In this document: piece after piece, positions 5,548 through 64,000 of the stretch | Position numbering within the stretch: the stretch's first letter is position 1 | Layout: every line of letters begins with the position of its first letter | Assembly: GCF_035084215.1 (NCBI RefSeq) | Contig: NW_027139217.1 | Span: 310,001-374,000, forward strand | Length of the DNA: 64,000 nucleotides | Source of the DNA: Heptranchias perlo | Taxonomy: Eukaryota | Direction: 5' to 3' | The notes under the pieces: generated by a model | Database searches by the model: none | What the model saw: only the letters and a program-made list of their open reading frames with translations | Told to the model about the DNA's origin: nothing | Position numbers and translations under genes: made by a program

Positions 5548-5596
5548 ATGATTGGACTGATAGTTCTGGTCGTTCTGTGTGGAGGGGTCTCTGCAG
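5548..5596 (+). CDS. MHC-I copy 1 exon 1 (signal peptide MIGLIVLVVLCGGVSA)
   Basis: gcaATG start, hydrophobic leader, donor G|gtgagt. Confidence 0.85.
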
Positions 5597-26500: not shown

Positions 26501-28835
26501 CCTCTCTTTCTCTCTGCGTGCGCCTCTCTCTCTCTCTGCGTGCGCCTCTCTCTCTCTCTGCGTGCGCCTCTCTTTCTCTCTGCGTGCGCCTCTCTTTCTC
26601 TCTGCGTGCGCCTCTCTTTCTGTCTGCGTGCGCCTCTCTTTCTCTCTGCGTGCGCCTCTCTTTCTCTCTGCGTGCGCCTCTCTGCCTCTCTGCGTGCGCC
26701 TCTCTTTCTCTCTGCGTGCGCCTCTCTTTCTCTCTGCGTGCGCCTCTCTCTTTCTCTCTGCGTGCGCCTCTCTTTCTCTCTGCGTGCGCCTCTCTTTCTG
26801 CATGCGCCTCTCTTTCTCTCTGCGTGCGCCTCTCTTTCTCTCTGCGTGCGCCTCTCTTTCTCTCTGCGTGCGCCTCTCTTTCTCTCTGCGTGCGCCTCTC
26901 TTTCTCTCTGCGTGCGCCTCTCTTTCTCTCTGCGTGCGCCTCTCTTTCTCTCTGCGTGCGCCTCTCTCATTCTCTCTGCGTGCGCCTCTCTTTCTCTCTG
27001 CGTGCGCCTCTCTCTTTCTCTCTGCGTGCGCCTCTCTTTCTCTCTGCGTGCGCCTCTCTGTCTCTCTGTGTGCGCCTCTCTTTCTTTCTGCGTGCGCCTC
27101 TCTTTCTCTCTGCGTGCGCCTCTCTTTCTCTCTGCGTGCGCCTCTCTTTCTCTCTGCGTTCGCCTCTCTCTTTCTCTCTGCGTGCGCCTCTCTCTCTCTG
27201 TGTGCGCCTCTCTCTCTCTCTGTGCGCCTCTCTTTCTCTCTGCGTGCGCCTCTCTCTCTCTCTGTGTGCGCCTCTCTTTCTCTCTGCGTGCGCCTCTCTC
27301 TCTCTGCGTGCGCCTCTCTCTCTCTCTCTGCATGCGCCTCTCTTTCTCTCTGCGTGCGCCTCTCTCTCTCTGCGTGCGCCTCTCTCTCTCTGCGTGCGCC
27401 TCTCTCTCTCTCTGCGTGCGCCTCTCTCTCTCTCTGCGTGCGCCTCTCTTTCTCTCTGCGTGCGCCTCTCTCTCTCTCTGCGTCTGCCTCTCTCTCTCTC
27501 TCTCCGTGCGCCTCTCTCTCTCTCTGCGTCTGCCTCTCTGTCTCTCTCTGCGTGTGCCTCTCTCTCTGCGTGCGCCTCTCTCTCTGCGTGCGCCTCTCTC
27601 TCTGCGTGTGCCTCTCTCTCTGCGTGCGCCTCTCTCTCTGCGTGCGCCTCTCTCTCTCTGCGTGCGCCTCTCTCTTTCTGCGTGCGCCTGTCTCTCTCTC
27701 TGCGTGCGCCTCTCTCTTTCTGCGTGCGCCTGTCTCTCTCTCTGCGTGCGCCTGTCTCTCTCTCTGCGTGCGCCTGTCTCTCTCTGCGTGCGCCTCTCTT
27801 TCTCTCTGCGTGCGCCTCTCTCTCTGCGTGCGCCTCTCTCTCTGCGTGCGCATCTCTTTCTCTCTGTGTGCGCCTCTCTCTCTGTGCGCCTCTCTCTCTC
27901 TCTCTCTGCGTGCGCCTCTCTCTCTCTCTCTCTGCGTGCGCCTCCCTCTCTGCGTGCGCATCTCTTTCTCTCTGCGTGCGCCTCTCTCTCTGTGCGCCTC
28001 TCTCTCTCTCTCTGCGTGCGCCTCTCTCTCTCTCTGCGTGCGCCTCTCTCTATCTCTCTGCGTGCGCCTCTCTCTCTCTGTCTGCGTGCGCCTCTCTCTC
28101 TGCGTGCGCCTCTCTCTCTCTCTGCGTGCGCCTCTCTCTCTCTCTCTGCGTCCGCCTCGCTCTCTCTGTCTGCGTGCGCCTCTCTCTCTCTCTGCGTGCG
28201 CCTCTCTCTCTCTCTCTGCGTGCGCCTCGCTCTCTCTCTCTGCGTGCGCCTCTCTCTGCGTGCGCCTCTCTCTCTCTCTGCGTGCGCCTCGCTCTCTCTC
28301 TCTGCGTGCGCCTCGCTCTCTCTCTCTGCGTGCGCCTCTCTCTCTCTCTCTCTGCATGCGCCTCTCTCTCTCTCTGTGTGCGCCTCTCTTTCTCTCTGCG
28401 TGCGCCTCTCTCTCTCTCTGCGTCTGCCTCTCTCTCTCTCTCTCCGTGCGCCTCTCTCTCTCTCTGCGTCTGCCTCTCTCTCTCTCTCTGCGTGCACCTC
28501 TCTCTGTCTCTCTCTGTGCCTCTCTTTCTCTTCCTCTNNNNNNNNNNNNNNNNNNNNNNNNNNNNNNNNNNNNNNNNNNNNNNNNNNNNNNNNNNNNNNN
28601 NNNNNNNNNNNNNNNNNNNNNNNNNNNNNNNNNNNNNNNNNNNNNNNNNNNNNNNNNNNNNNNNNNTCTTTATCTCTCTTTATCTCTCTCTCTCTCCCTC
28701 CCCCCTCTCTCTCTCGCTCTCTCTCTCTGTACAGAACATTCTCTGTGTTCTACAATGTCTGTTTGACAGAAATCTTTTCTTTTCACAGCTGCTGAAAGAG
28801 GAGAATCGTCCTCAAACTCATCAGCCCGAGCCTGA
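5548..28835 (+). CDS. MHC class I heavy chain, copy 1 (355 aa): join(5548..5596,6964..7224,14072..14344,15671..15946,16721..16846,17759..17794,28789..28835)
   Basis: Leader, alpha1, alpha2, alpha3, TM and two cytoplasmic exons. All introns are GT-AG phase 1. The 1068-nt spliced frame is open and ends in TGA. Confidence 0.92.
5636..6200. repeat. 40-bp minisatellite, intron 1
   Basis: Tandem gtcagtgggtgtgttaccccaggcccctctccctcagtct. Confidence 0.95.
6210..6340 (-). mobile_element. Penelope-like element terminal fragment with hammerhead-like core
   Basis: The reverse complement (ctgaggaaggaggaagtctccgaaagcttgtga...ggactataacttggtgttgtaa) is homologous to the PLE end at 43660-43740. Confidence 0.65.
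6395..6955. repeat. About 40-bp minisatellite abutting the exon-2 acceptor
   Basis: Tandem catgccctgat(ct)n ggggttggtgttttggggtt. Confidence 0.95.
6964..7224 (+). CDS. MHC-I copy 1 exon 2 (alpha1 domain)
   Basis: (G)[36 protein letters not shown]...WERK...TRTNQSV, with Y7, R84 and the N86 glycan site. Boundaries tttcag| and |gtgagt. Confidence 0.95.
7268..7815. repeat. G-rich GGGAGC/GGGGTCA low-complexity tandem repeat, intron 2
   Basis: Direct periodicity. Confidence 0.9.
7832..7905 (+). pseudogene. Relic 3' end of a second, divergent MHC-I alpha1 exon plus donor site
   Basis: gatattctgacggtcatg(g)actcggaccaaccagtcgggcg|gtgagt..cgcactcgggct parallels 7182-7257; it translates as DILTVM-TRTNQSG. 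Confidence 0.75.
7978..10620 (-). mobile_element. Cluster of nested CR1 LINE fragments (RT region 8961-10350; a second CR1 3' end inserted at about 8411-8960)
   Basis: KSPGPD, NYRPVSLTSVVGK, QHGF, MDFSKAFDKVPH and GVPQGS motifs. The host reading ttttatacacc/acctcaatt is split by the insert. Confidence 0.88.
10651..10880. repeat. About 21-bp minisatellite (cgtgtctctctattccccccc)
   Basis: Direct periodicity. Confidence 0.9.
10885..11135 (+). mobile_element. CR1 3' end fragment
   Basis: KHF.TQRVGEVW..; FKSEIDRFL; CR1-type 3' UTR. Confidence 0.7.
11180..12380 (-). mobile_element. Harbinger/PIF-derived fragment encoding a degenerate Myb/SANT-like protein
   Basis: RLRAPRFSDDAREALVQEVDRRRDILYP..; KKFNALT.VVK|gtgagt. 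Similar to 44718-45400. Confidence 0.7.
12418..13928. repeat. About 30-bp minisatellite upstream of the alpha2 exon
   Basis: Tandem ggggtcctttaaatacactgatcggggtccg. Confidence 0.95.
14072..14344 (+). CDS. MHC-I copy 1 exon 3 (alpha2 domain)
   Basis: (G)IHMIQQMTGCDL..FQYAWDGEDFI..ITKNKW..GYLEGECIEWLRKYLEYG, with C101/C164, T143, K146, W147, Y159, W167 and Y171. Confidence 0.96.
14345..15425. repeat. About 23-bp minisatellite built from the exon-3 donor site
   Basis: Units gagagtcg|gtgagtgaggggg mimic the true junction gagggccg|gtgagtgagggggg. Confidence 0.93.
15427..15632. repeat. 41-bp tandem repeat (5 units) before the alpha3 acceptor
   Basis: ggggtctaatccccagtttaaaggggtttgtcccgttccct. 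Confidence 0.93.
15671..15946 (+). CDS. MHC-I copy 1 exon 4 (alpha3, Ig C1-set)
   Basis: LSCLVTGFYPRDI...ILPNHDGTYQ...YSCQVDHSS; boundaries ctctcag| and |gtaaga. Confidence 0.96.
16010..16200 (-). mobile_element. Short CR1 RT fragment in intron 4
   Basis: The - strand reads ..W.DTWQMKFNTEKCEVMYF.RKNEE. Confidence 0.7.
16721..16846 (+). CDS. MHC-I copy 1 exon 5 (connecting peptide plus TM)
   Basis: (D)GTFRVTPGSSEGPNLGLIVGIVLAAVALIALVIGAVVWKKR; boundaries ccacag| and |gtagga. Confidence 0.93.
16975..17590. repeat. 28-bp GC-rich minisatellite, intron 5 (about 22 units)
   Basis: gggaccggggccccgtacggggagtgaa. Confidence 0.95.
17759..17794 (+). CDS. MHC-I copy 1 exon 6 (cytoplasmic, GGEKKSGYSPAN)
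   Basis: Boundaries tcttgtag| and |gtaagt; 36 nt; carries the YxxA-type motif of class I tails. Confidence 0.85.
17820..28730. repeat. About 11-kb compound (TC)n/TGCGTGCGCC microsatellite filling intron 6
   Basis: Direct observation; source of the spurious ORFs of more than 3500 aa. Confidence 0.97.
28538..28666. other. Assembly gap (N run)
   Basis: 129 Ns. Confidence 0.99.
28789..28835 (+). CDS. MHC-I copy 1 exon 7 (PAERGESSSNSSARA*)
   Basis: Acceptor ttttcttttcacag|; Ser-rich terminal tail in the correct phase. Confidence 0.8.
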
Positions 28836-29869
28836 GGTACGAAGCCAATCACTTGAGTTTAACAGCAGCTGAACGAGCAGCAAACCAGGTTGTGAAGAGC
28901 AGTAACTGTGGGCTCAGGGGGTCGGGAGGGAGCTGCTTATATCTGACTGGACTGAGTCTCCTCACTGGAACGCTGCTTTTTCACTTAATGTTTGTCGAGA
29001 TTTCTCACTGAGTGAAACCCTGATTCCAGAACACAGTCTGTAAAAGACACAACCCCCAGGGGTGAAGTGGAATTCCTTTGACAGTCACGGTCCACCATTG
29101 ATCAACTGGGGTTTAATACATCGCAGATCTGGCAATACGAGCTTTTTTTGTGGGAAGGAAGAGTTTTTTTGAACCCATCATCAGTGTGAATCAGGCCCAG
29201 GTGAGGTCAGGGAGAGAGTAAAGCTTCTCTCTGACCCCAGGAATCACCTGGTGACCTCTTGTTCTATTAAAGGTGCCTGAGCTGCTGCAGCATCCACTTC
29301 CCTTCAGCTAACAAACTGAAGGTCCAATCGTTCTGGGCCATCGTCAGGCCGAGGCTTTAAGTGAATATGTTGGGGGAGTGAGGAGGGAATTCCAGACGTC
29401 TGGCTGGGTTGTGGAGGTTAATATTCCTGGCAGCAGTGGAATGAATTAATTTAAACAGGGAGAACTGGAGGTTTCGAAACCAGGACTGGTGAGCAACAAA
29501 CTTCTGGGTCCCGTCAGCTGCTCAGTGAGACCCTGCAGCTGTTTAATATACTGGAGGATGGAATCTGTCACCTTGAGAGGGGGAGCTGGTTGTGCTGAGG
29601 ATTTGAGGATGGGGATTATACCTCACCTAGGACCCTGGGCCTTAGACTGACACATTGTGCAGTGTACCTTGTGACACTATGCTGGAACACTCGGTCTTCT
29701 CTGAGATCTGGTGCTCCTGGAGAGGTTTGATGGGAAGGATTGTGTCCTGGGCTGGGCTGGCCGTGTTCACTCACATTGCTGCAATCTTTACTTGTGTCTG
29801 TAGGGGGCCTGTCCCGTGGCACCTGGAACGGCCACCAATGGTGGGGTGAAGGGAGTGGGGGTGGACAAG

Positions 29870-30375
29870 AGGCCAGAATTGGAGGAACGCAGAGATCTCG
29901 GAGGGTTGTAGGGCTGGAGGAGGTTACAGAGATAGGGAGAGGGCGAGGGCCATGGAGGGATTTGAAAACAAGGATGAGAATTTTAAAATCGAGGCGTTCC
30001 CGGACCGGGAGCCAATGTAGGTCAGTGAGCACAGGGGGTGCTGGGAGAACGGGACTTGGTGAGAGTTAGGATACGGGAGCAGAGTTTTGGATGAGTTCAA
30101 GTTTATGGAGGGTGGAAGATGGGAGGCCGTCCTGGAGAACATTGGAATAGTCCAGTCTGGAGGTAACAGAGGCACGGATGAGGGTTTCAGCAGCAGATGA
30201 GCTGAGGGAGGGGTGGAGACGGGCGATGTTACGGAGGGGGAAGTAGGTGGTCTTGGTGATGGAGCAGATATGGGGTCAGAAGCTCATCTCAGGGTCAAAT
30301 AGGACCCCAAGGTTGTGAACGGTCTGGTTCAGCCTCAGACAGTGGCCAGGGAGAGGGATGGAGTCGGGGGTCTGG
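29870..30375 (-). mobile_element. L2-clade LINE fragment downstream of copy 1
   Basis: [35 protein letters not shown]. Confidence 0.8.
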
Positions 30376-32924
30376 GGAACGGAGTTTCTATATCGATCTC
30401 TCTCAGTCCCACCTCCTGTACTGGGTGTGAGCCTCCCTGTGAATCTGTCTCTGTTCCATTCCCCAGGCTGATCCTGAGTGAAGTTGATTGGATCCAGAAT
30501 CTGGATGTTCGGTGTCGCTGGGAGGATTGATTGAGAAACGATCGGGGATTGTTAATCGCAATTAGTTTTGATTGATTGTCACTGGCTGCTCTCGCTGTTT
30601 TTTTACTGTATTCTGTAATGTTTCCATCATTGAGATGATTTTTGGCTTTTTTTCTTGGTGATTTGATCGAAATCTCCAGTTGTGTGTTTTGCCATTGAAT
30701 GTTAAATGAGATGTTTTTAATTGCAGTCGTTGCCTGTGTTCCTGTCGATGGGAAATGTTCATTAAACTGATTCAGGGAGAGGTCAGCGGGCCGCTGATTA
30801 GTCCCAGATCAGTGACTCCGTCTCCAACCTCTTCCCCTCGGCAAGGGTGAAATGTTTTGATTCTCTGCTCAGTTGAAGTTTCTGTTCTTCCCGCCCGTAT
30901 TGATTGGTGTCTGAAGTGGGCCCTGTGTCTCCCTGGGACTGCGGTTTGTTAAAGGGAAGGAGCAGCTTCAGGTCTCTGAACCCAGCCAGGCTGTTACTGG
31001 CCTGCTGTGTGGGACTAGGGTGGGCAATGGAAATGTTTGGGATTGCACTCTGCACCACTCTACTTACTGGCTTCAATTTATACCTGTGGATAATAAAAGC
31101 TCTCGCTCTCCAAACTGCAGCTGTGTGTTCACTCTGTCCAGGACCAGACCCTGGAACAGAGAGTACCAGGGACACCGGGAACAACTAGATCAGGGCGTGA
31201 CTCTTAAACCATTACCCTGACCCCCCCTTGACCAGTACAATATGAGTCAGTGACTTACCAGAGCAGCCAGTAACTCAAACTGACCATCACCATCCCACCT
31301 GGATAAAAGTTACATGTCCACCCTGAACTCTGTCACTGCTTTCCCATTCCAGTGCTCCCCCTCTGCTGCCTCTGGGAGATCTTGTCTGTCCCTCCTGCTC
31401 TCGTGTCTAGAGTCGGCCAGTGGGCTGGTTACACTATCAGCTGATTGAGAAAGCACAAGGGGCAGCTTAGCCCTGCTGTCATAGGGTGCCCTCTGAATGT
31501 ATCTGCAGTGACTGGACAGTGGCCTTACTTACCCTGCCAACCTGAGACCACATATCACTGGCTCACTGTGGAACTCACCACATGTCCACTGGCTCCTGGC
31601 ACTGCCTCTGAACTCAGGGAACGCAGTTACAATAGTCCTTGAAAGATCGGGAAAGCCAGAGCCAAGAGCTCTCTCCAACCTGTCAGCAACTTAGGAACCA
31701 CCTTTGGAGACAGCCCTCTTGATTTAGTTGCCCAGGGCCTCCATGGCAGCAGTGTGGGATGCCAGGCAGCAGCCTGCTCCTGGTCGAGGGCCCTCTTCCT
31801 TGGGAGCATCCTGTGCAGGCCTGCTTGGAGTGGCCACACGGCCCATGGAGGCCTGCAGTGATTTGAAACTCTCCCTCATGGTCAGACCTGTTGTCACCCA
31901 TGGACTACAGCTGGCCTGAAAGGAGCCATGTATGGCCGGAGACTCCGACACGCCACCTGTCTGCCCTGTGAGTGGACGCTCAGCGCTCCAGGTCCAGAGT
32001 CCACTTGTTGGTGTTTTTTGTAAATCCACATTTTCTGTGGGAAAGGTGAGTCACTGGAGCTTCAGTGCTCCTGCTCATGTGTTGCATGGTTCCTCCAATG
32101 AGCAAGACAACGTCGTATCTTCATCAACATCACCTCCCTTCTCCACCTTATTTCCTTGTGATTATGTAAATGGAGTAAGTTCTCAGAGCAGAGAATGTTC
32201 ATTCATTCAAATACACATCAGATCGATTTCTTTCAGAACTGAATATTTTGGGATACAGTAAATGAGTAATTTGAGACATGACGTTCGAGTAAGAGGCTGG
32301 GGAGGAACAGGTGACTTTGGACCTCTGGTTCCCAAATCTCTCCACCACTGGGGGTTTTCCTCACCTCATGAGTGGGTCTGTTGTCGACACATTGATAGAG
32401 ATTGATTGGGGGGCAGGAATGGCAGCTCAACGTTCCTGGATACAGGGTTTTTAGACGAGATAGAGAGGGGGATAAAAAAGGAGGGGGTGGGCAATATTGG
32501 TTAAAGAAACAATTACGGCCGTGAGGAGGGATGATATGTTCAAAGGATCATCAAATGAGGTCACATGGGTTGAGCTAAGGAACAAAAAAGGGGCAGTCCC
32601 ACTGCTGGGAGTGAACGATAGACCCCCAAACAGTCAGAGGGAGAGAGAAGAGCAAATATGGAGGCAAATTTCTGAAAAGTGCAAAAACAATGGGGCAGTA
32701 ATAGTGGGGGATTTCAACGCCCCTGATATTAACTGGGATAGAATCAGTGTAAAAGGTACAGAGGGTGCAGAATTCATAAATTACATTCAGGAGAACTTTT
32801 TTATCCAGTCCGGAGCAAGCCCAACAAGAGGGGGCGGGGGGTCAGTTCTGGATTTAGTTTTAGGGAATGAAGCTGGGCAGTGGAAGGAGGATCAGTGGGA
32901 GAGCATTTTGCTGGGAGTGATCAT

Positions 32925-35900
32925 GGGGCCGATTTTCAGATGGCCGAGCGGCGGCATTGGGGGCGGGGGGTTCCTAAAATGGCGGAATCCCGGAGCGGGT
33001 TCAGAGCCTGGCTCCAACCTGCTGACTTCCGGGTTCCCCAGTGACGTGTTCGGGTGCGCGCGCAGCTCCCGCATGTGGGACTCCCACCGGCAATTAAAGC
33101 CGGCGGGATGCTGCTTTAGATAGTCAGATACTTGAGGTACTTGACAGACCTCATTGAGTGGAGATTTTGGCAGGGGTGCAATTTTGAAGGATCCTCAGCG
33201 TGTTTCCCGTGCTGTGGGAAACACTCCCTGTTGGAGCAGACGTGTTTCACTCAGCAGCCAGTGGGAGATGCAAAGGATTATTTGACAGGTGGGGGGAAAA
33301 CCTCATTTATTGCAGCAGGGCACTCTGTCACTTCAGACTAAGTTTTGGCTGCAACACCTTTGTCTTTCCACTCAAAATTATTAATTTAGATCCTAAACTC
33401 TGCTGTGCAAACACGTTTACCTAGTTTGCGGACCCCCTCAAACTCACACCGTCAGGATGGGGGGCACCATGGCTGCATTCATCACTTCATCCGAGGACGG
33501 GCACCATCACCAGCCTCGCCAGGCACGCCGTCCACCTCCGCCACATGGAGCTCCACAACACAGTGCTGCACCACAGGGACCTGCACAAAATAGTCATGGA
33601 ACTCCACGTACACCCACTGTAGGGTCACCCAATGGGTGGCATCAAGTGTGGGTGCTCATGGAGAACCTCATGAAAGGGACTTATTACACAAGCCAGTCAA
33701 AAATGGCCAAGACGTGGCAGTAGTGGTGACAATAATAATATTTAATGTGCCATTAACAAAAATGAAATATAAATACAAAACATGACAAACCGTCAAACCC
33801 CCTTGTGCATCCCCTTCGTGCTGACAAAACCTTCACCTTTCTCTTCCGACTACTCCCACGTGGTGCATCCCCTGTGGCTGCAGCAGACGTAGTGGCAGGT
33901 TGCTCTCGTTCATGCCCTGACCAATTAGATGCTTTGGGCCTTCGCCCTCTGGGTTTCGGTGCCCATGAGGGCCCCTCCAAAGACTGCTCACCTGCACCTG
34001 TGCAGGGGCAGACTCGACCACCTGGAGAGGAGGCAGCATTGTGGGTACAGGTTGAGAGGGGGGCAACGGGTGAGACGTGGGGGTGCTTTGAGTGGCTTCC
34101 CCACTTCCATGCCCCCTTTCGCCATCATCCCTCTCCTGGGCCAGGCCCACATCACTCCTACCACCCTGCTGGACGACAGTTTGGAGGACATGTGTGAAGT
34201 CTTGTCAGGCCAGTGCCAGAGTATCTGCCTGCCTGTTTAAGGCGGCAGAAAGTTGCTCACCCTGAGTCCGAAGGGCCGTTGTCAGGGCCTCAATGGAATC
34301 ATTGGTGAGCCGTGCTTGAAGCTCCATGGAAGCTAGCCTTCCCTCCATCGCAGACATTCCCGCACTTACCCGCGACACTATCTCAGAGATTCCCTCATGT
34401 CCCTGTGACAGTATCTCAGAGATTCCCTCACATCCCTGTGACAGTATCTCAGAGATTCCCTCACGTCCCTGTGACACTATCTCAGAGATTCCCTCACGTC
34501 CCTGTGACAGTATCTCAGAGATTCCCTCACGTCCCTGTGACACTATCTCAGAGATTCCCTCACGTCCCTGTGACAGTATCTCAGAGATTCCCTCACGTCC
34601 CTGTGACACTATCTCAGAGATTCCCTCACGTCCCTGTGACACTATCTCAGAGATTCCCTCACGTCCCTGTGACACTATCTCAGAGGTTCCTTCCTGTACC
34701 TGTGCCACCATTCCACTCATGCAGGAGTTGGACTCCTCCATCCTCTGCGTGATTGTGGAGAGTGCGCGTGGCACTTGTTCCAGCACCTCGTAAATGTGCT
34801 GCTGCCCCTCGATCATTCTCCTTTTCATGGTTGGCCCCCAGGGTTCAGCATCTGTGTCCTGCTGAGCAGAGCCTGGAGAGGAGTGCTCCCACCGACAGGG
34901 ACTCTCCACAGCTGCCCCTGCCACCAGTGTCTGCTGGTGCTCACATGGGTGTGGTGACTCACCGTGTGCGACCCCAATTAAGTGAGGACGGGGACCCACC
35001 AAGGTGTGAGTATCTGCGCTGGTGGATGGCTCGCTCAGATGTGACGGTGCCCCCGAAGGCCGGCAGGTCCTCTGAGGAATCGCCCTCCACTGTCATGGCG
35101 GTCGCTGAAGGCCCTGTAAGAGAACAAAAGGTAATATTAAGCATGATGACAGATGTTGAGGTGCTGAAGATGGCGAGGCATGTTAATATCGTTTGCTATT
35201 GTGAGTGCTGAATGTTAAAGTTCTGTCACCAGATGTTTGTCGGGTGGCAGCCTCGATGTCCCCGACGGACAGGCACTCGAGGGTGCGGCTCAGCTCCAGA
35301 GCCTCCTGCTCCGCGTCTGTGAGGACGACCAGATGTTGTGCCCCCCTCCGGTCTTCGCCCTCTCCCATGCATTCTGGGCTCTCTTTTATAAGGGGAGAAA
35401 GTAGAGAGGCGTGAGTGAGGGATGGTGACGTGGCCAACCGCTGAATGCATTGGTTTGGGTGCGGCTGACCGTGAAAGAGATGCATCAGAGGGTGAGTATG
35501 AGACAGAGCCATGAGATTGTATGAGGATTGGGTTGAGTGGTAGTGGTGGGGTGAGTACTGGGGAGGTGAGGAAGTGCAGGTAAGTTGAGGATGAGGTTTG
35601 AGTGGGTGTGAGGAGTGATGTGATAGAGTAGTGTTGGCAGTGCAGAAGGAGTTGTGGGGTGGGGGCGGTGATGTGGAAGATGGAGTGTAGGAGAATGAGT
35701 AAGTGTGCTCACTTTGACTGACCTGGTTAGGTCATTGAAGCGCTTCCTGCACTGGATCCATATGCGGGAGACGTTGCTGCTGCTGGTGACCTCCTCTGCC
35801 ACCTCGAGCCAGGCCTTCTTGGTGGCAGAGACAGGCCACTTCCTCCCGTCCGCCGGGTAGAAGATCTCCCTCCTCCTCACCCCATCCAGTCGGATCTGGA

Positions 35901-36211
35901 GTGAGGTATCGGTAAATCTGGGAGCAGCCTTTCCCCTGGGCTGCTCCATTCTATAATTTTGGTTGTTTGCTGCAGGAGCAGCCATTGGAGGACTGCCCCT
36001 TTAAATAGGGCTCCTCCTGCTGACAGCCTGTGATGTGGGTGCGCAGGCCGCCCGCTGCGCAGGTTGACGACGGGAAACCCGGAAGCCACGGTAAGTGGCT
36101 TCAATTTACCCGCGATCGCGTGGGGAACGGATGGATTTTACTGGGCGGGTTACCCACGCACCCAGTCGCCCCCCCCTGCTGCCAACCCACCTCCCTGGTA
36201 ATATCGGGGCC
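32925..36211 (-). mobile_element. Non-autonomous Harbinger/PIF transposon with spliced Myb/SANT gene and deleted transposase
   Basis: 3-bp TSD CAT and imperfect TIRs (GGGGCCGATTTT / rc GGCCCCGATATT). Myb exon 35713-35949 reads MEQPRGKAAPRF..W.EVA..QCRKRFNDL; only a short putative transposase N-terminus remains at 33457-33590. Confidence 0.82.
34375..34690. repeat. 33-bp in-frame tandem repeat (QGREGISEIVS) in the Harbinger Myb gene
   Basis: About 10 units of cacgtccctgtgacactatctcagagattccct. Confidence 0.9.
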
Positions 36212-44440: not shown

Positions 44441-45566
44441 AGTGAGCTGACCCCAGGGCCCATGTAGGATGGGAGATAGTGGGGGTTAAATTGGATCACC
44501 CCCGAATCCGGGCGTGGGGGTCGCGGTGCGCGGTTAACCCGTGCCCCGAGGTTCCGATATTGGAACACGCGTGATTCGTGCCTCCGGATCAGCTCCGTGA
44601 TTTCTGCGTTGGGCGAGCGCTACCCGTGTCGTTGAGTGGCTCCACGCACCAGCAGGGGGCCTGATATGGGGCGTGGCCAGCACTAGTTAAAGGCAGCCTG
44701 CACCTCTTAAAGGGGAGGTGCACTGTCAATTCAAGCAGTGGAGGAGGACAAGTGGAACGGCTGGACCTGCGAGAGAGCGTGCCCCGAGGTTCTCCGACAG
44801 CGCACTGGAGGCCCTGGTGGAGGAGTGGACGCATGGAGGGCCATCCTGTACCTGCAGGGTGGCAGGAGACCCTCCAGACACCAGCTACAGAGGCAGTGGG
44901 AGGAAATGGCGCTGGAAGTGAATGCCAGGAGCATTGTGTCACGCACGTGGATACAGTGCAGGAAAAAGTTCAATGATCTGACACGAGTGGTCAAGGTAAG
45001 TGAATGCAAGTGTCAAGTGGCACATCGTACCAACACTGGTCCATGCATCACACCCCCCGTCACCCACCCGCCAGCAAACGCTGCCCCTCCGTAGGCAATG
45101 CTGCACTTCGCATGCTGCATCTCACCTGCACGTAGTACCACACTTGGAATCCACACACCCACCACTCACAGGTCACACACAAGGGCAGCTATTCGACCAT
45201 GACAGGCCCATCACCCAAACACCTTGCAGGACACTCACTGACACACTTCCCTCTGTCTTGCAGGAGAAGGTGGAGCAGAACAGCCGGCAGCAGGAGAGAA
45301 CGGACGGAGGGCAGGCACGTCTCCACGTCCTCACCCCCATGGAGGAGACAGCCCTGGGGATCATTGGATGGGCCATCACTGCGGCCGTGGACACTGGCGA
45401 CCCCGATGGGGAGGGGGGTGGTCTCTGCAAACCTAATCCTCCTTCTCGTTTCCCACACCTCCCTCATCCCACAATCTTTTCTGACTCACGCACTGCTGAT
45501 GCTGTCAGCACACACGTCTTATTTGCTGCTCTCCCCGCTCCACAACTCAACCAGTCTCCCTTTGTC

Positions 45567-56254: not shown

Positions 56255-57529
56255 GGGAACCCGACGTCCCTGACGTCGGGTTCCCACTTCCACGATGGTC
56301 AGTCTCCGGAGTCTCCCTCACAAACAAACACATTCTCTCTCTCTGGCACAAAGTCTGCAATGCTTCAGTTTTAACTCCAAGTCTGTCTTTTCGAATGATG
56401 CTGTCTTCTCAAAGTTGCTGGAGTGGTTGGTTTCATCCCCTGATTGGCTCTGTTCCAAGGGGTGAGGTAGCATCACTCATACCCCTTTTCTAAATAAGGC
56501 CTGGTGTCTCATCACCGTTCCTTTGTCCCTCGAAGAAGCGGAACGAATTCAAACCGGTTCTGGCCAGTTCAGACCAGTGACTGAACTCCAGGTCACCTCA
56601 GTTCAAAAGGTCAGTGTCTTTGTCAGCAATTCGAATTAAACTCAATCGGTTTCTGCAGCCTCTGGCCAACAAGGGGGGGTCAGGGTAATGGTTTAAGAGT
56701 CACCCCCTGATCTAGTTGTTCCCGGTGTCCCTGGTACTCTCTGTTCCAGGGTCTGGTCCTGGACAGAGTGAACACACAGCTGCAGTTTGGAGAGCGAGAG
56801 CTTTTATTATTCCACAGGTATAAATTGAAGCCAGTAAGTAGAGTGGTGCAGAGTGCAATCCCAAACATTTCCATTGCCCACCCTAGTCCCACACAGCAGG
56901 CCAGTAACAGCCTGGCTGGGTTCAGAGACCTGAAGCTGCTCCTTCCCTTTAACAAACCGCAGTCCCAGGGAGACACAGGGCCCACTTCAGACACCAATCA
57001 ATACGGGCGGGAAGAACAGAAACTTCAACTGAGCAGAGAATCAAAACATTTCACCCTTGCCGAGGGGAAGAGGTTGGAGACGGAGTCACTGATCTGGGAC
57101 TAATCAGCGGCCCGCTGACCTCTCCCTGAATCAGTTTAATGAACATTTCCCATCGACAGGAACACAGGCAACGACTGCAATTAAAAACATCTCATTTAAC
57201 ATTCAATGGCAAAACACACAACTGGAGATTTCGATCAAATCACCAAGAAAAAAAGCCAAAAATCATCTCAATGATGGAAACATTACAGAATACAGTAAAA
57301 AAAAACAGCGAGAGCAGCCAGTGACAATCAATCAAAACTAATTGCGATTAACAATCCCCGATCGTTTCTCAATCAATCCTCCCAGCGACACCGAACATCC
57401 AGATTCTGGATCCAATCAACTTCACTCAGGATCAGCCTGGGGAATGGAACAGAGACAGATTCACAGGGAGGCTCACACCCAGTACAGGAGGTGGGACTGA
57501 GAGAGATTGATATAGAAACTCCGTTCCCC

Positions 57530-58035
57530 AGACCCCCGACTCCATCCCTCTCCCTGGCCACTGTCTGAGGCTGAACCAGACCGTTCACAACCTTGGGGTC
57601 CTATTTGACCCTGAGATGAGCTTCTGACCCCATATCCGCTCCATCACCAAGACCGCCTACTTCCCCCTCCGTAACATCGCCCGTCTCCGCCCCTCCCTCA
57701 GCTCATCTGCTGCTGAAACCCTCATCCGTGCCTCTGTTACCTCCAGACTGGACTATTCCAATGCTCTCCTGGCCGGCCTCCCATCTTCCACCCTCCATAA
57801 ACTTGAACTCATCCAAAACTCTGCTCCCGTATCCCAACTCTCACCAAGTCCCGTTCTCCCAGCACCCCCTGTGCTCGCTGACCTGCACTGGCTCCCGGTC
57901 CGGGAACGCCTCGATTTTAAAATTCTCATCCTTGTTTTCAAATCCCTCCATGGCCCTCGCCCCCTCCCTATCTCTGTAACCTCCTCCAGCCCTACAACCC
58001 TCCGAGATCTCTGCGTTCCTCCAATTCTGGCCTCT
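57530..58035 (+). mobile_element. L2 fragment (duplicate of 29870-30375)
   Basis: [27 protein letters not shown]. Confidence 0.8.
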
Positions 58036-58855
58036 TGTCCACCCCCACTCCCTTCACCCCACCATTGGTGGCCGTTCCAGGTGCCACGGGACAGGCCCCC
58101 TACAGACACAAGTAAAGATTGCAGCAATGTGAGTGAACACGGCCAGCCCAGCCCAGGACACAATCCTTCCCATCAAACCTCTCCAGGAGCACCAGATCTC
58201 AGAGAAGACCGAGTGTTCCAGCATAGTGTCACAAGGTACACTGCACAATGGGTCAGTCTAAGGCCCAGGGTCCGAGGTGAGGTATAATCCCCATCCTCAA
58301 ATCCTCAGCACAACCAGCTCCCCCTCTCAAGGTGACAGATTCCATCCTCCAGTATATTAAACAGCTGCAGGGTCTCACTGAGCAGCTGACGGGACCCAGA
58401 AGTTTGTTGCTCACCAGTCCTGGTTTCGAAACCTCCAGTTCTCCCTGTTTAAATTAATTCATTCCACTGCTGCCAGGAATATTAACCTCCACAACCCAGC
58501 CAGACGTCTGGAATTCCCTCCTCACTCCCCCAACATATTCACTTAAAGCCTCGGCCTGACGATGGCCCAGAACGATTGGACCTTCAGTTTGTTAGCTGAA
58601 GGGAAGTGGATGCTGCAGCAGCTCAGGCACCTTTAATAGAACAAGAGGTCACCAGGTGATTCCTGGGGTCAGAGAGAAGCTTTACTCTCTCCCTGACCTC
58701 ACCTGGGCCTGATTCACACTGATGATGGGTTCAAAAAAACTCTTCCTTCCCACAAAAAAAGCTCGTATTGCCAGATCTGCGATGTATTAAACCCCAGTTG
58801 ATCAATGGTGGACCGTGACTGTCAAAGGAATTCCACTTCACCCCTGGGGGTTGTG

Positions 58856-59160
58856 GGCTGGAAATTGGGCCGTGTCGCGCACGTTGTTTCAGCGTGACAC
58901 GGCCTCCTGAAGTGACAAGATGGCGCCTTGGCTGCGCACGCACGTTTCCAGCGTGACGTGTGCCGGACGCCACCTTGGTATAGGTATTAGCGCAGGCGCA
59001 AATATCGAACGCCGGCAGCATTTAAAGTAAGGAGAAAATGGATCCAATCAGCGTGGGATTTAGTAGTGCGCAACCTTAATTCAATCTGTTAACGTAACTC
59101 AGCAGTTTTTAAACATAGGGACGGGACCTGCATCTGTGTTTTACGTGTGTGAAGTCTGAG
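58856..59160. mobile_element. Harbinger-like terminal fragment replacing the exon-7 region of copy 2
   Basis: Starts with TIR-like GGCTGGAAATTGG. Segment 59053-59160 matches the Harbinger-associated sequence at 11852-11960. Confidence 0.6.
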
Positions 59161-59990
59161 AGAGGCAGAGAGAGATGCACGCAGAGAGAGAGAGAGGCGC
59201 ACGCAGAGAGAGAGGCGCACGCAGAGAGAGAGAGAGAGAGGGAGAGATGCACGCAGAGAGAGAGGCGCACGCAGAGAGAGAGAGAGAGGGAGAGATGCAC
59301 GCAGCGAGAGGGGCACGCAGAGAGAGAGGGGCACGCAGAGAGAGAGACACGCAGAGAGAGAGGCACGCAGAGAGAGAGGGGCACGCAGAGAGAGAGACAC
59401 GCAGAGAGAGAGGCACGCAGAGAGAGAGGGGCACGCAGAGAGAGAGGGGCACGCAGAGAGAGAGACACGCAGAGAGAGAGACACGCAGAGAGAGAGGGGC
59501 ACGCAGAGAGAGAGAGACACGCAGAGAGAGAGGGGCACGCAGAGAGAGAGGGGCACGCAGAGAGAGAGGCACGCAGAGAGAGAGACACGCAGAGAGAGAG
59601 GGGCACGCAGAGAGAGAGGGGCACGCAGAGAGAGAGACACGCAGAGAGAGAGGGGCACGCAGAGAGAGAGGCGCACGCAGAGAGAGAGACACGCAGAGAG
59701 AGAGGGGCACGCAGAGAGAGAGGCGCACGCAGAGAGAGAGGCAGACAGAGAGAGAGAGAGAGAGGCCTGCAGAGAGAGAGAGAGAGAGGCCCACAGAGAG
59801 AGAGAGAGAGAGGCCCACAGAGAGAGAGCGAGTGCCACGCAGTGGGGGGGGGGGGGGAGAGAGAGAGAGAGACAGAGAGAGAGAGGGACACACACACACA
59901 CATAGATAAAGATGCACAGAGAGACACACACAGAGACGCACACAGACAGAGACACACACAGACAGACAGAGACACCCACAGACACACCCA
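59161..59990. repeat. Short version of the intron-6 compound microsatellite (copy 2)
   Basis: (GA)n/GCACGC units. Confidence 0.93.
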
Positions 59991-60014
59991 CCCTTGCACT
60001 ATTTGCACACTTAC

Positions 60015-60050
60015 GATTTGCTGGGCTGTAACCAGATTTTTTCTCTCCTC
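60015..60050 (-). pseudogene. MHC-I copy 2 exon 6 with destroyed acceptor (tcttgtCG)
   Basis: The + strand reads ctccGacaaga where copy 1 predicts ctccTacaaga. Confidence 0.8.
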
Positions 60051-63000
60051 CGACAAGAGACAGAAACAGACGGAACTTCAGTTACAAACAGCTCCTCGAT
60101 CAGCACAGCCCCTCGCCGACACAAACTTACTCCAGAAACAGGGGCAATGACCAGATTTCCCTGTGGGCACTCACAGGAGGCTCACTGAGAAACAGGCATC
60201 GGACAATATCCTCTCTTCACCCGGTCCCTTCACTCCCCAATCAGGCCCAGTCCCTTCACTCCCTGTACGGGGCCCCGGTCCCTTCACTCCCCGTACGGGG
60301 CCCCGGTCCCTTCACTCCCTGTACGGGGCCCCGGTCCCTTCACTCCCCGTACGGGGCCCCGGTCCCTTCACTCCCCGTACGGGGCCCCGGTCCCTTCACT
60401 CCCTGTACGGGGCCCCGGTCCCTTCACTCCCCAATCAGGCCCAGTCCCTTCACTCCCCGTACGGGGCCCCGGTCCCTTCACTCCCTGTACGGGGCCCCGG
60501 TCCCTTCACTCCCTGTACGGGGCCCCGGTCCCTTCACTCCCCGTACGGGGCCCCGGTCCCTTCACTCCCCGTACGGGGCCCCGGTCCCTTCACTCCCTGT
60601 ACGGGGCCCCGGTCCCTTCACTCCCCGTACGGGGCCCCGGTCCCCTTCACTCCCTGTATGGGCCCCGGTCCCTTCACTCCCGGTACGGGGCCCCGGTCCC
60701 TTCACTCCCTGTACGGGGCCCCGGTCCCTTCACTCCCCGTACGGGGCCCCGGTCCCTTCACTCCCTGTACGGGGCCCCGGTCCCTTCACTCCCTGTACGG
60801 GGCCCCGGTCCCTTCACTCCCCGTACGGGGCCCCGGTCCCTTCACTCCCCGTACGGGGCCCCGGTCCCTTCACTCCCCGTACGGGGCCCCGGTCCCTTCA
60901 CTCCCCAATCAGGCCCAGTCCCTTCACTCCCCGTACGGGGCCCCGGTCCCTTCACTCCCCGTACGGGGCCCCGGTCCCTTCACTCCCCGTACGGGGCCCC
61001 GGTCCCTTCACTCCCCGTACGGGGCCCCGGTCCCTTCACTCCCCGTACGGGGCCCCGGTCCCTTCACTCCCCGTACGGGGCCCCGGTCCCTTCACTCCCC
61101 GTACGGGCCCCGGTCCCTTCACTCCCCGTACGGGGCCCCGGTCCCTTCACTCCCCGTACGGGGCCCCGGTCCCTTCACTCCCCGTACGGGGCCCCGGTCC
61201 CTTCACTCCCCCGTACGGGGCCCCGGTCCCTTCACTCCCCGTACGGGGCCCCGGTCCCTTCACTCCCGGTACGGGGCCCCGGTCCCTTCACTCCCCGTAC
61301 GGGGCCCCGGTCCCTTCACTCCCCGTACGGGGCCCCGGTCCCTTCACTCCATGTACGGGGCCCCGGTCCCTTCACTCCCCGTACGGGGCCCCGGTCCCTT
61401 CACTCCCCGTACGGGGCCCCGGTCCCTTCACTCCCCGTACGGGGCCCCGGTCCCTTCACTCCCCGTACGGGGCCCCGGTCCCTTCACTCCCGGTACGGGG
61501 CCCCGGTCCCTTCACTCCCCGTACGGGGCCCCGGTCCCTTCACTCCCGGTACGGGGCCCCGGTCCCTTCACTCCCCGTACGGGGCCCCGGTCCCTTCACT
61601 CCCCGTACGGGGCCCCGGTCCCTTCACTCCCTGTACGGGGCCCCGGTCCCTTCACTCCCTGTACGGGGCCCCGGTCCCTTCACTCCCCGTACGGGGCCCC
61701 GGTCCCTTCACTCCCCGTACGGGGCCCCGGTCCCTTCACTCCCCGTACGGGGCCCCGGTCCCTTCACTCCCCGTACGGGGCCCCGGTCCCTTCACTCCCT
61801 GTACGGGTCCCTGTCCATCACTGGACTGTGTCGGAGTTTCCCACATGTCTATGGGAAGTCTCTAATGTTCTGCCATTTGTGCTGTAACATTTGAACCTGC
61901 TCATCCCCGTGTGGGACAGATCCTGTCCTCATTTCCTACCTCTCTTCTTCCAGACAACGGCACCAATGACGAGAGCAATCAGGACGACGGCAGCAAGAAC
62001 AATTCCAACAATTAAACCCAGATTCGGTCCCTCTGAAGATCCCGGAGTCACTCGGAACGTCCCATCTGTGGGGGGAATAAGGAGGAGGAGAGAAATGAAT
62101 AACGACAGTCGCTGCTGATTAGGAAGTAATGAGACCAAAGCTGTGCCTGAGACTGAGTTCGATTCGAGTCTGCGATGTGATGGGCAGTCTGATCAGAGCA
62201 AGTTGGAGGTTAGAAAGTTCAGCGTGGCTTTGATTCCACTCCTGGGAAGCACTTTGGGACGTTTCTCTCCATTAAAGGCACTTTATAAATACAAGTTGTT
62301 GCTTGTCTGCAGATATTGGAATTACCCATCAGTCCAAAGTCATTACGAGTCCCCTCCACAAGTGAGGAATCCCCAGCACAGTCTCAGAGTCGGCTGGTGG
62401 AAGTATAGTGATGGGTGATACGGTCTTTCTATGGAAGGTTGAGGAGTTCAATGGACTAACGGCCTCCTTCACCTGACACACAGATCCCAGCCAGTCAATA
62501 ACTCAGTGTAACCCAGATATATGGTGCTGCTCATTATAGACAGGCAGGTTTGGAAATCTCTTGTATTTCTGAATAAAATTTCCCCGTCACAGGTATAGAG
62601 GGTATAATTTCAAAGTTTGCAGCTGACATGAAACTTGGAAATGTAGTAAACAATGTGGAGGATAGTAACAGAGTTCAGGAGGACACAGACAGACTGGTGA
62701 AATGGGCAGACACATGGCAGATGGAATTTAACACAGAGAAGTGTGAAGTGATGTATTTTGGAAGGAAGAATGAGGAGAGGCGATAGAAACATCTTTAATC
62801 CTCAGCCTCAGACTCTCCCCCTGCACTCACTGATCCTCTTACCCCAGTCTCGGGTCTCCACTCCTGCTTTGCTGCTGTGATCCACCTGACAGGAGTAGGT
62901 GGCTCCGTCCTCGGGCCCGATCTCAACCCATCTCTTGATCTGGTAGGTGCCATCGTGGTTGGGCAGGATGCCAGTGGAATCAGTGTCTGAGATCGGCCGT

Positions 63001-64000
63001 CCATTTCTCAGGAGGGTGAGTTCGATATCTCGAGGGTAAAACCCCGTGACCAGGCAGGAGAGTTGGGCCGGTTTAGTGTCTGAGGCCTTGTCCACAGAAA
63101 GAAACACTTGGGGAGTAACTGAGAGTAAAACAGATCAGAGCCGAGTCAGTGTGAGACAGGGAACGGGACAAACCCCTTTAAACTGGGGATTAGACCCCAG
63201 GGAACGGTACAAACCCCTTTAAACTGGGGATTAGACCCCAGGGAACGGGACAAACCCCTTTAAACTGGGGATTAGACCCCAGGGAACGGGACAAACCCCT
63301 TTAAACTGGGGATTAGACCCCAGGGAACGGGACAAACCCCTTTAAACTGGGGATTAGACCCCATTCCCCCCCTCACTCACCGACTCTCACTCCCCCCTTC
63401 ACTCACCGACTCTCAGTCCCCCCCTCACTCACCGACTCTCACTCCCCCCTCACTCACCGACTCTCACTCCCCCCCTCACTCACCGACTCTCACTCCCCCC
63501 CTCACTCACTGACTCTCACTCCCCCCCTCACTCACCGACTCTCAGTTCCCCCCCTCACTCACCGACTCTCACTCCCCCCCTCACTCACCGACTCTCACTC
63601 CCCCCTCACTCACCGACTCTCACTCCCCCCCTCACTCACCGACTCTCACTCCTCCCCTCACTCACCGACTCTCACTCCCCCCTCACTCACCGACTCTCAC
63701 TCCCCCCCTCACTCACCGACTCTCACTCCCCCCCTCACTCACTGACTCTCACTCCCCCCCTCACTCACCGACTCTCAGTTCCCCCCCTCACTCACCGACT
63801 CTCACTCCCCCCCTCACTCACCGACTCTCAGTTCCCCCCCTCACTCACCGACTCTCACTCCCCCCTCACTCACCGACTCTCAGTTCCCCCCCTCACTCAC
63901 CGACTCTCACTCCCCCCCTCACTCACCGTCTCTCACTCCCCCCTCACTCATCGACTCTCACTCCCCCCCTCACTCACCGGCCCTCAGTTCCCTCTTTCCG
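60015..64000 (-). CDS. MHC class I heavy chain, copy 2 (5'-partial; alpha2 end, alpha3, TM, defective exon 6, no exon 7)
   Basis: Exons 63978..>64000, 62843..63118, 61940..62065 and 60015..60050. Confidence 0.85.
60222..61810. repeat. 28-bp minisatellite, intron 5 of copy 2 (about 57 units)
   Basis: Reverse complement of the 16975-17590 unit. Confidence 0.95.
61940..62065 (-). CDS. MHC-I copy 2 TM exon
   Basis: ..NLGLIVGIVLAAVVLIALVIGAVVWKKR (A->V versus copy 1); intact splice sites. Confidence 0.92.
62843..63118 (-). CDS. MHC-I copy 2 alpha3 exon
   Basis: Protein identical to copy 1 alpha3; intact splice sites. Confidence 0.95.
63157..63977. repeat. Intron-3 minisatellites of copy 2 (41-bp and donor-derived 23-bp)
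   Basis: Reverse complements of the 14345-15632 units. Confidence 0.93.
63978..64000 (-). CDS. MHC-I copy 2 alpha2 exon, 3' end (GKRELRA)
   Basis: c gga aag agg gaa ctg agg gcc g|gtgagt; E->K versus copy 1. Confidence 0.85.

Follow-up and report, generated by a model that had tools for sequence, protein, structure and literature searches.

A mutated exon-6 acceptor and a deleted exon 7 in a Heptranchias perlo MHC class I gene

An inverted pair of MHC class I genes

The window, a 64,000-nt stretch of Heptranchias perlo DNA, contains two MHC class I genes arranged as an inverted pair, with copy 1 on the plus strand (5548 to ~31115) and copy 2 on the minus strand, leaving the window at 64000 with its 5' part beyond. 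Both genes match named H. perlo class I models. The plus-strand exons of copy 1 comprise the leader (exon 1, 5548–5596), alpha1 (6964–7224), alpha2 (14072–14344), alpha3 (15671–15946), the transmembrane (TM) exon (16721–16846), exon 6 (17759–17794), the 48-nt, Ser-rich exon 7 that carries the stop (28789–28836), and the last exon 8 (30467–31115, AATAAA at 31092, 3' end approximate). The spliced product equals the H. perlo class I model P0091 (XP_067834114) and keeps a tail with the exon-6 Tyr and the exon-7 Ser motif, which matches the tails of Pristiophorus and Squalus relatives. An assembly gap of 129 N (28538–28666) lies in intron 6 of copy 1, separating exons 6 and 7. Additionally, a broken relic of an alpha1 end is located at 7850–7904.

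On the minus strand, the window holds the final 23 nt of the copy 2 alpha2 exon (63978–64000), the remaining alpha2, the alpha1 and the leader lying outside. Further downstream are the alpha3 exon (62843–63118), the TM exon (61940–62065), the 36-nt exon 6 (60015–60050), which carries the tail Tyr and has an intact donor, and the last exon 8 (56790–57436), with an intact acceptor, AATAAA at 56808 and an approximate 3' end. A first-pass annotation of this DNA had described the copy 2 ectodomain as intact; this holds for alpha3, which is identical to that of copy 1, but with 23 nt of alpha2 in view the full claim is not readable from the window alone. Both the alpha3 and the TM exon are intact, as are the four AG/GT splice sites that bound them, in agreement with that annotation, and its two residue differences between the copies, one A>V change in the TM exon and one E>K change at the alpha2 end, were likewise confirmed. 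Alignment within the window gave 99.1, 99.6, and 99.2% identity for the non-repeat blocks and 25 substitutions over 3763 aligned columns, with a 3' block divergence of 0.66%; the single coding change in 438 nt between the copies gives no power for dN/dS or for dating or ordering the lesions.

The models P0001 and P0091 consist of PF00129 alpha1/alpha2, PF07654 C1-set alpha3 and TM regions, which places them among the MHC class I heavy chains, and among solved structures the closest relative is that of nurse shark Gici-UAA*01 (6LUP, E 6e-98), a molecule named in the accessible text of PMC8236899. P0001 (XP_067834108), a complete model of 331 aa that carries MHC_I and C1-set domains and is not labelled 'low quality', is the sole fetched protein containing the visible 144 residues of copy 2, from which we infer that copy 2 encodes it. 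P0001 differs from copy 1 at 34 of 178 alpha1/alpha2 residues (17 in alpha1 and 17 in alpha2). Since the visible residues fit only this divergent model, copy 2 is probably not the twin of copy 1. The earlier suggestion of a full-length and a tail-less version of one molecule therefore probably fails for this pair; the short-tailed near-twins of copy 1 are other paralogs, XP_067834112 and XP_067834109, with 4 and 3 differences, respectively. A false haplotype duplicate was rejected because the copies differ in orientation, flanks and alpha1/alpha2.

Two lesions in the tail region of copy 2

The first lesion lies at the exon-6 acceptor (60051–60052, minus strand), which reads ...tcttgtcg in copy 2 versus ...tcttgtag in copy 1. 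As the first-pass annotation had recognized, AG is changed to CG; the changed base, A>C at 60052, is read from the assembly letters and is the sole difference from copy 1 in a 232-bp block around exon 6. The probability that at least one of 25 substitutions strikes any of 14 essential splice bases is P = 0.089, so the acceptor change is not beyond neutral expectation and gives no evidence of selection. In-frame GAG acceptors exist within exon 6, including the one previously noted 3 nt downstream; their use would move the exon start to 60047 or 60044.

The second lesion removes exon 7. Homology between the two copies picks up again at 29048/58855, and the 3' part of copy 2 intron 7 (57437–58855) is 99% like copy 1 29048–30466. 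Upstream of it, exon 7 plus 381 unique bases are replaced by one end, ~300 bp long, of a Harbinger-like repeat with many copies (58856–59157), followed by a pyrimidine-rich remnant of the intron-6 repeat (59158–59987, minus strand). Alignment and blastn thus bear out the exon-7 loss, the homology jump and the Harbinger-like end reported before, to which can be added the 129-N gap, the last exon, which starts at 57436 (30467 in copy 1), and the size of the intron-6 repeat, which spans 10.7 kb in copy 1 and is cut to 0.83 kb in copy 2. Neither the exon-6 Tyr plus exon-7 Ser motif tail of classical class Ia molecules nor, within the window, a second copy of exon 7 was found for copy 2 (word-size-7 blastn with 28789–28836; best other hit E 0.69), and relocation of the exon within the window was rejected on that search. 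The start of the deletion inside the copy 1 repeat gave no unique match (83–91% at scattered places).

The junction fragment is 90% like 11852–11958, which adjoins a stretch 74% like 44766–45283; the ORF of the latter matches PF13873 above the cut-off, and related elements thereby show the PIF/Harbinger Myb/SANT feature. PIF/Harbinger elements have terminal inverted repeats and a 3-bp target duplication; a similar-ended element at 32925–36207 has a 3-bp duplication, and the junction fragment keeps one end only. No DDE transposase match was found among 13 ORFs scanned, and the junction fragment is too short to encode one. The joint between repeat and element creates a new acceptor-like site at 59155 (minus strand), a CAG after an 88% pyrimidine tract, which ranks second among the minus-strand AGs of 57300–60014 when acceptors are ordered by pyrimidine content only. 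The element copy at 11.9 kb does not have this tract.

Predicted products and short-tailed paralogs

All tail exons share one phase, and exon 8 of copy 2 provides an in-frame stop after two bases. This exon is corroborated by P0098 (XP_067834144 isoform X2), which ends exactly as a splice from exon 6 to exon 8 predicts, and by a contig joint at 57435 in the RNA-like run X5, whose short side has 27 letters and comes from another paralog. Because the intact last exon supplies the stop, splicing of the TM exon straight to exon 8 would give a clean 4-residue tail, three basic residues and Gly, and a transcript that should escape nonsense-mediated decay, its stop lying in the final exon. Read-through from the TM exon into intron 5, the form modelled in XP_067834108, would give nearly the same protein with a 6-residue tail and a stop 1.9 kb ahead of the last junction; as no poly(A) signal was found in introns 5/6 between 62100 and 58637, this form is not supported as a clean transcript. 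No acceptor in the window would yield the 'DC' ending of isoform XP_067834111. Of the possible coding outcomes for copy 2, a tail-less product is the most likely. At the genomic level, the heritable tail truncation of HLA-G-like class Ib genes is present, and the corresponding protein is predicted.

Copy 2 does not stand alone, as three of nine gene-level RefSeq models of the H. perlo family (XP_067834108, XP_067834109, and XP_067834112) terminate in an identical 6-residue tail. These three share one long-stem derived clade (support 100/99) together with copy 1, which keeps its tail, and the copy 2 lineage falls inside the H. perlo expansion (support 98/99; tree without mammals). Short tails occur in 2 of 74 other elasmobranch class I models with a TM region. 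Another H. perlo model, P0134, has an alpha3/TM unlike those of this family and closer to the usual UAA type. The eight peptide-terminus anchors, which we take to be Y7, Y59, R84, T143, K146, W147, Y159, and Y171, were mapped by alignment. P0002, P0096, P0004, and P0011 keep 8/8, P0001 keeps 7/8 (R84Q), copy 1 keeps 7/8 (Y59N), and P0090 and P0092 keep 6/8; each short-tailed model has lost one or two, and so departs from the complete anchor set of classical class Ia (UAA) molecules. Classical class Ia genes are further marked by high allelic polymorphism, broad expression and tight linkage to TAP/PSMB genes.

The alpha3/TM regions are near-identical across the family while alpha1/alpha2 differ, which suggests that the 3' block was copied among paralogs. 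The two lesions, previously called independent, are mechanically separate, one being a substitution and the other a deletion 0.9 kb away, yet judging from the paralog protein models they were more likely inherited together with a 3' block common to several copies. Something other than shared lesions could also account for the early ends of the other short-tailed paralog models. We propose that intron 7 received a Harbinger-like element, that a deletion reaching from within the intron-6 repeat into the element took out exon 7, and that, before or after this, the exon-6 acceptor was inactivated by a point change; the block would then have spread through duplication or conversion. With one lesion already present, the second needs no selection. 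Without the Tyr and Ser motifs, the product would be expected to internalise slowly and to lack endosomal cross-presentation, by analogy with mammalian tail mutants and HLA-G, and its role may be ligand-like rather than classical presenting.

Competing explanations and known systems

Contigs from 4 of 13 sequencing runs were compared over 56670–59175, a stretch outside which the exon-6 acceptor and TM exon lie. X1, X4, and X5 derive from one sample, possibly the assembled one, and four same-sample runs are guessed to be RNA. In X1, a DNA run, the shared contig stops at 58855, and the junction is crossed by a contig of 120 nt (58826–58945), which supports the junction at the level of reads, a kind of check that the first-pass annotation had proposed. 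This contig covers the intron/element joint, the repeat-side joint (59157/59158) being outside its span, and its depth of 96.8, compared with 263 in the shared flank (ratio 0.37), together with its 2 differences from the window, is a weak hint of several copies. The RNA-like runs continue from 58855 into copy-1-type sequence, and no copy-2 splice form was seen in their contigs over the compared stretch, which does not include the TM exon. Run X9, with another organism code, gave a contig over 58012–58808 that has 12 differences in 797 and ends short of the junction.

It is possible, although we hold it to be on the unlikely side, that birth-and-death evolution has left copy 2 and its short-tailed sisters behind as decaying duplicates, whose lesions built up by drift and whose transcripts are mostly scarce or degraded. 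One module has been struck two or three separate times, by an insertion, a deletion and a splice mutation, the splice hit is within neutral chance, the sister model XP_067834113 ends after alpha2, and the alpha1 relic noted above fits the same picture. Most alternative routes (intron-5 retention, an upstream cryptic acceptor, and the element exon) place the stop >50 nt ahead of the last junction. RNA-like contigs reach depths of 106 and 208 across the element end, far below the 581 and ~2900 of the shared intron, which would fit low copy-2 output, although the depth of contigs measures this poorly and the RNA status is guessed. On the other hand, P0001, P0090, and P0092 retain full open alpha1–TM frames, which weigh little because the low 3' block divergence leaves little time for stops, and the block is apparently carried by three copies with a decay-proof splice route available.

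An altered rather than lost tail appears improbable. Joining a GAG-spliced exon 6 to exon 8 would give a 15-residue tail that keeps the Tyr, as in the mammalian exon-7-less variant, and the 59155 acceptor would append a basic tail, 18 or 29 residues long, encoded by the element. The GAG route is in frame with its stop in the last exon, the exon-6 donor is intact, a paralog has the annotated exon-7-skipped isoform P0098, and the 59155 site ranks high in pyrimidine content. However, GAG is the least used and a rarely functional acceptor according to the moss data and the work cited with them in the accessible part of PMC3095350, exon 6 is used by 0/3 short-tailed RefSeq models, the stop of the element exon lies 404 nt before the last junction, and no joint from this exon is among the 15 joints listed. 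Least probable, at a small chance, is an assembly artefact, a consensus error at CG plus a false join spanning the long simple repeat that contains the breakpoint and gapped copy 1: the CG base rests on assembly letters and the bridging contig has a short side of 30 letters (bar 31) and 2 differences from the window, but a misjoin is unlikely because X1 contigs branch exactly at 58855, with words over the intron/element joint at depth ~97, three separate models end alike, and the copies are distinct in flanks, orientation and alpha1/alpha2.

We regard copy 2 as a real tail-truncated class Ib-like duplicate, a type familiar from mammals, whose function, if any, is putative, and give about an even chance that it belongs to a small, recently amplified, non-classical tail-less subfamily with a predicted surface product. 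HLA-G, whose stop lies within exon 6, shares with Mamu-AG, and by prediction with copy 2, the very short class I tail, whereas in copy 2 an acceptor mutation and a genomic deletion at a transposon are responsible. HLA-G is further characterized by placental, tissue-restricted expression, stability at the surface, low polymorphism, and receptor binding. The likeness drawn in the first-pass annotation is fair as an analogy but does not extend to orthology with HLA-G/MHC-AG, copy 2 belonging to a species-specific shark clade (tree without mammals). The consulted portions of the literature describe Mamu-AG as having arisen by duplication of a gene of classical type (PMC8984097) and endocytosis as lowered by the short tail of HLA-G (PMC4026753). 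In HLA-F and exon-7-less variants of mouse, cow and chicken, exon 7 is missing from the message, the tail is shorter and internalisation slower, as far as the available text of PMC7725694 and PMC3157908 goes; in copy 2 exon 7 is gone from the DNA, and the exon-6 Tyr that those molecules keep would be kept only with a GAG acceptor.

Elasmobranchs have extra MHC-Ia-like genes in species-dependent number (PMC10751288, available sections), and the accessible parts of PMC8236899 and PMC10751288 describe no tail-less members among UAA/'MHC-Ia-like' genes, from which copy 2 differs by altered anchors and a lost tail. The lesions behind the short tails were not found described in the literature searched, which covered few subscription papers; RefSeq already lists the short proteins, as models made automatically. 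Two ray class I models of Hemitrygon akajei (XP_072891916 and XP_072891929) also have 4-residue tails and altered anchors, with a different alpha3 type; they are known from annotation alone, and their short tails are likely convergent or annotation truncations. If copy 2 is not expressed, it represents routine birth-and-death decay within an MHC array. If expressed, it would extend class Ib tail truncation from mammals to cartilaginous fish and offer a natural same-ectodomain pair, tailed and tail-less, for testing whether tail-driven trafficking is as old as jawed vertebrates. Tentatively, H. perlo may have an expressed, fixed tail-less class Ib subfamily, derived from classical-type genes through a transposon-broken tail block swapped among paralogs, so that near-identical ectodomains occur with a tail (copy 1) and without one (XP_067834109/112); such a subfamily would be convergent with HLA-G/Mamu-AG across ~450 million years and may have a match in a ray.

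Inverted gene pair and the lesions of copy 2

The window contains two MHC class I genes in inverted, tail-to-tail orientation, copy 1 on the (+) strand and copy 2 on the (-) strand; with tandem repeats masked, they share three aligned blocks, at 99.1, 99.6 and 99.2%. The spliced product of copy 1 comprises 355 residues from seven coding exons with canonical splice sites throughout, and is identical to RefSeq XP_067834114 (P0091) of Heptranchias perlo. Its exon 7 is linked to exon 6 by scaffolding only, because a 129-N gap (28538–28666) lies within the 11-kb intron 6. A short relic duplicate (84%) of the alpha1 exon end and donor is located in copy 1 intron 2 (7850–7904), and a degenerate retroelement-like stretch was seen by eye upstream of the leader (about 1600–2900).

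The exon-6 block of copy 2 differs from that of copy 1 solely by A>C at 60052, which turns the acceptor AG into CG, as the first-pass annotation had claimed. Its second claim, deletion of exon 7 with a roughly 300-bp element at the junction, also holds: the exon-6 donor is followed by about 150 unique bases, 0.83 kb of repeat and about 300 bp of another element, homology to copy 1 resumes at 29048 (copy-1 coordinate), and no second copy of exon 7 was found elsewhere in the window. The junction fragment, high-copy in DNA contigs, is 90% like 11852–11958 over 107 bp, which adjoins a stretch related to the Myb/SANT ORF at 44.7–45.1 kb. The label "Harbinger-like" is reasonable, but membership is unproven because the fragment retains just one end and none of the 13 ORFs scanned gave a transposase hit. 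A similar-ended 3.3-kb Myb/SANT-bearing element (32925–36207) shows a 3-bp target duplication and splits a LINE endonuclease region; its relatives lie at about 11.2–12.3 kb and 44.5–47.6 kb, and in the latter an open frame contains a 20-bp tandem repeat.

The last exon and predicted tails

An exon absent from the first-pass annotation begins with a strong acceptor, located at 30467 in copy 1 and at 57436 in copy 2. Bases 3–5 of this last exon (exon 8) are a stop, and it also holds an AATAAA signal. Two external lines of evidence back this exon: the C-terminus of P0098, a paralog isoform X2, matches exactly the predicted exon-6-to-exon-8 splice, and in RNA-like run X5 one contig connects 57435 with 58750 (27 letters on the short side), using a donor created by a paralog variant at 58749. 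This GT-donor variant (58749–58750, (-) strand) is present in X5 and in X9, a run under another organism code, and in neither window copy; its joint to exon 8 represents alternative splicing of the 3' UTR in a different paralog. Since exon 8 exists, the element occupies intron 7 instead of the 3' UTR, and copy 2 retains a working 3' end.

The tail exons all share one phase. For copy 2, splicing from the TM to exon 8 would give 4 residues, and a GAG acceptor followed by exon 8 would give 15 residues including a Tyr, both with the stop in the last exon. Read-through of intron 5 would add 6 residues and place the stop 1914 nt upstream of the final junction; a new acceptor at 59155 would add 18 or 29 and place it 404 nt upstream of that junction. 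As is well established, transcripts with a stop far upstream of the last junction are degraded. At 59155 (-), the deletion put a transposon AG behind a pyrimidine repeat, generating a strong-looking acceptor that could yield a basic, element-derived tail. Because GAG is the acceptor used least, according to PMC3095350, we favour the TM-to-exon-8 route.

Short-tailed family members

An alpha3 search gave two H. perlo clusters with 13 member proteins, which we grouped by accession and isoform label into 9 gene-level models; those on unplaced scaffolds may include haplotype duplicates. The 6-residue read-through tail ends three of the nine (XP_067834108, 109/111 and 112; short numbers are last digits of XP_067834xxx), all located, like copy 1, on one 612-kb scaffold. 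For these three the automatic annotator left out exon 6, which suggests that they have a broken acceptor in common. Four of the remaining models are full-tailed, one (XP_067834659–661; P0094/95/97) has three odd, unrelated tails, and one (XP_067834113, P0089) ends after alpha2; the ends of the last two are either real truncations or assembly gaps.

Among the proteins fetched by then, the 144 visible copy-2 residues match only XP_067834108 (P0001), whose open frame spans 331 residues and includes both MHC_I and C1-set domains. Of 178 alpha1/alpha2 positions, 34 separate it from copy 1, against 3 for 109 and 4 for 112. In an alpha1/alpha2 tree of 19 proteins, 108, 113, 114, 112 and 109 form a long-stem clade (support 100/99) nested in an H. 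perlo expansion (98/99). At eight positions that we take to be the peptide anchors, 108 carries R84Q, copy 1 Y59N, and 109 and 112 both Y59N and K146R; full-tailed 115 and 651 keep 8/8, and 143 has W147L. Alpha3 and TM are nearly identical family-wide, so the 3' halves appear homogenised and the lesions young; 3'-block divergence is 0.66%. H. perlo P0134 closely resembles P0002/P0093/P0096 in alpha1/alpha2 with two different alpha3/TM/tail types between them, which suggests exchange of peptide-binding exons between the usual UAA-type gene and this family.

Function, decay and known relatives

We give an even chance to an expressed tail-less class I subfamily. The three open frames of the short-tailed models, a predicted decay-proof splice route of copy 2, and the restriction of tail loss to the clade with altered anchors argue for function. 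So does the rarity of short tails elsewhere (2/74), taken from 82 elasmobranch cluster representatives, including one other H. perlo protein and leaving out non-elasmobranchs, three long fused models, partial or ectodomain-only entries, P0006, P0047 and two query-family rows; a TM was present in 74 of the 82, and among these 74 a tail Tyr occurs in 62, while just 2 have tails no longer than 10 residues. The tail-less copies may instead, with clearly lower probability, be decaying duplicates: chance alone would produce a splice-site hit with P 0.089, the duplication is too recent for open frames to carry much weight, copy 1 of the same clade is still tailed, the runs compared with 56670–59175 showed no transcript of copy 2, and, as a weak pointer, RNA-like depth is low over the element end. 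The same open frames and predicted splice route speak against decay. That copy 2 acquired a changed tail, such as the longer predicted ones, and did not lose it, is improbable.

Four of 13 listed runs were compared with 56670–59175. In DNA run X1, the shared-sequence contig breaks off at precisely 58855. The junction itself is crossed by a contig of 120 nt (58826–58945, 2 letters differing, depth 96.8), which has 30 letters on its short side, one below the tool's bar. A loose end of X5 at 58855 is copy-1-type sequence, and an X4 contig continues past 58855, off the stretch compared. This fork matches the expectation for two real alleles of the junction. Against the shared-flank depth of 263, the ratio of 0.37 would fit 3 of 8 or 9 copies, contig depth not being copy number. 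X1, X4 and X5 represent one sample, possibly the assembled one, and therefore guard against a misjoin, not a private variant; what they bear on is the intron/element joint at 58855. An assembly artefact is a very unlikely source of the lesions.

The literature searched contained nothing on class I of H. perlo or on tail-less shark class I; the supplements of PMC10751288 list gene coordinates that may bear on naming. The best solved relative is nurse shark UAA (6LUP). The gene of copy 2, probably 108 (R84Q), does not pass the anchor test for classical class Ia. Two Hemitrygon akajei class I models (P0169, P0179) have 4-residue tails and altered anchors, possibly a convergent case. The lesions of copy 2 are real, and their outcome is of a known type that is new for the lineage as far as searched; the predicted product falls outside the HLA-G family, but by analogy would act like a tail-truncated class Ib molecule.
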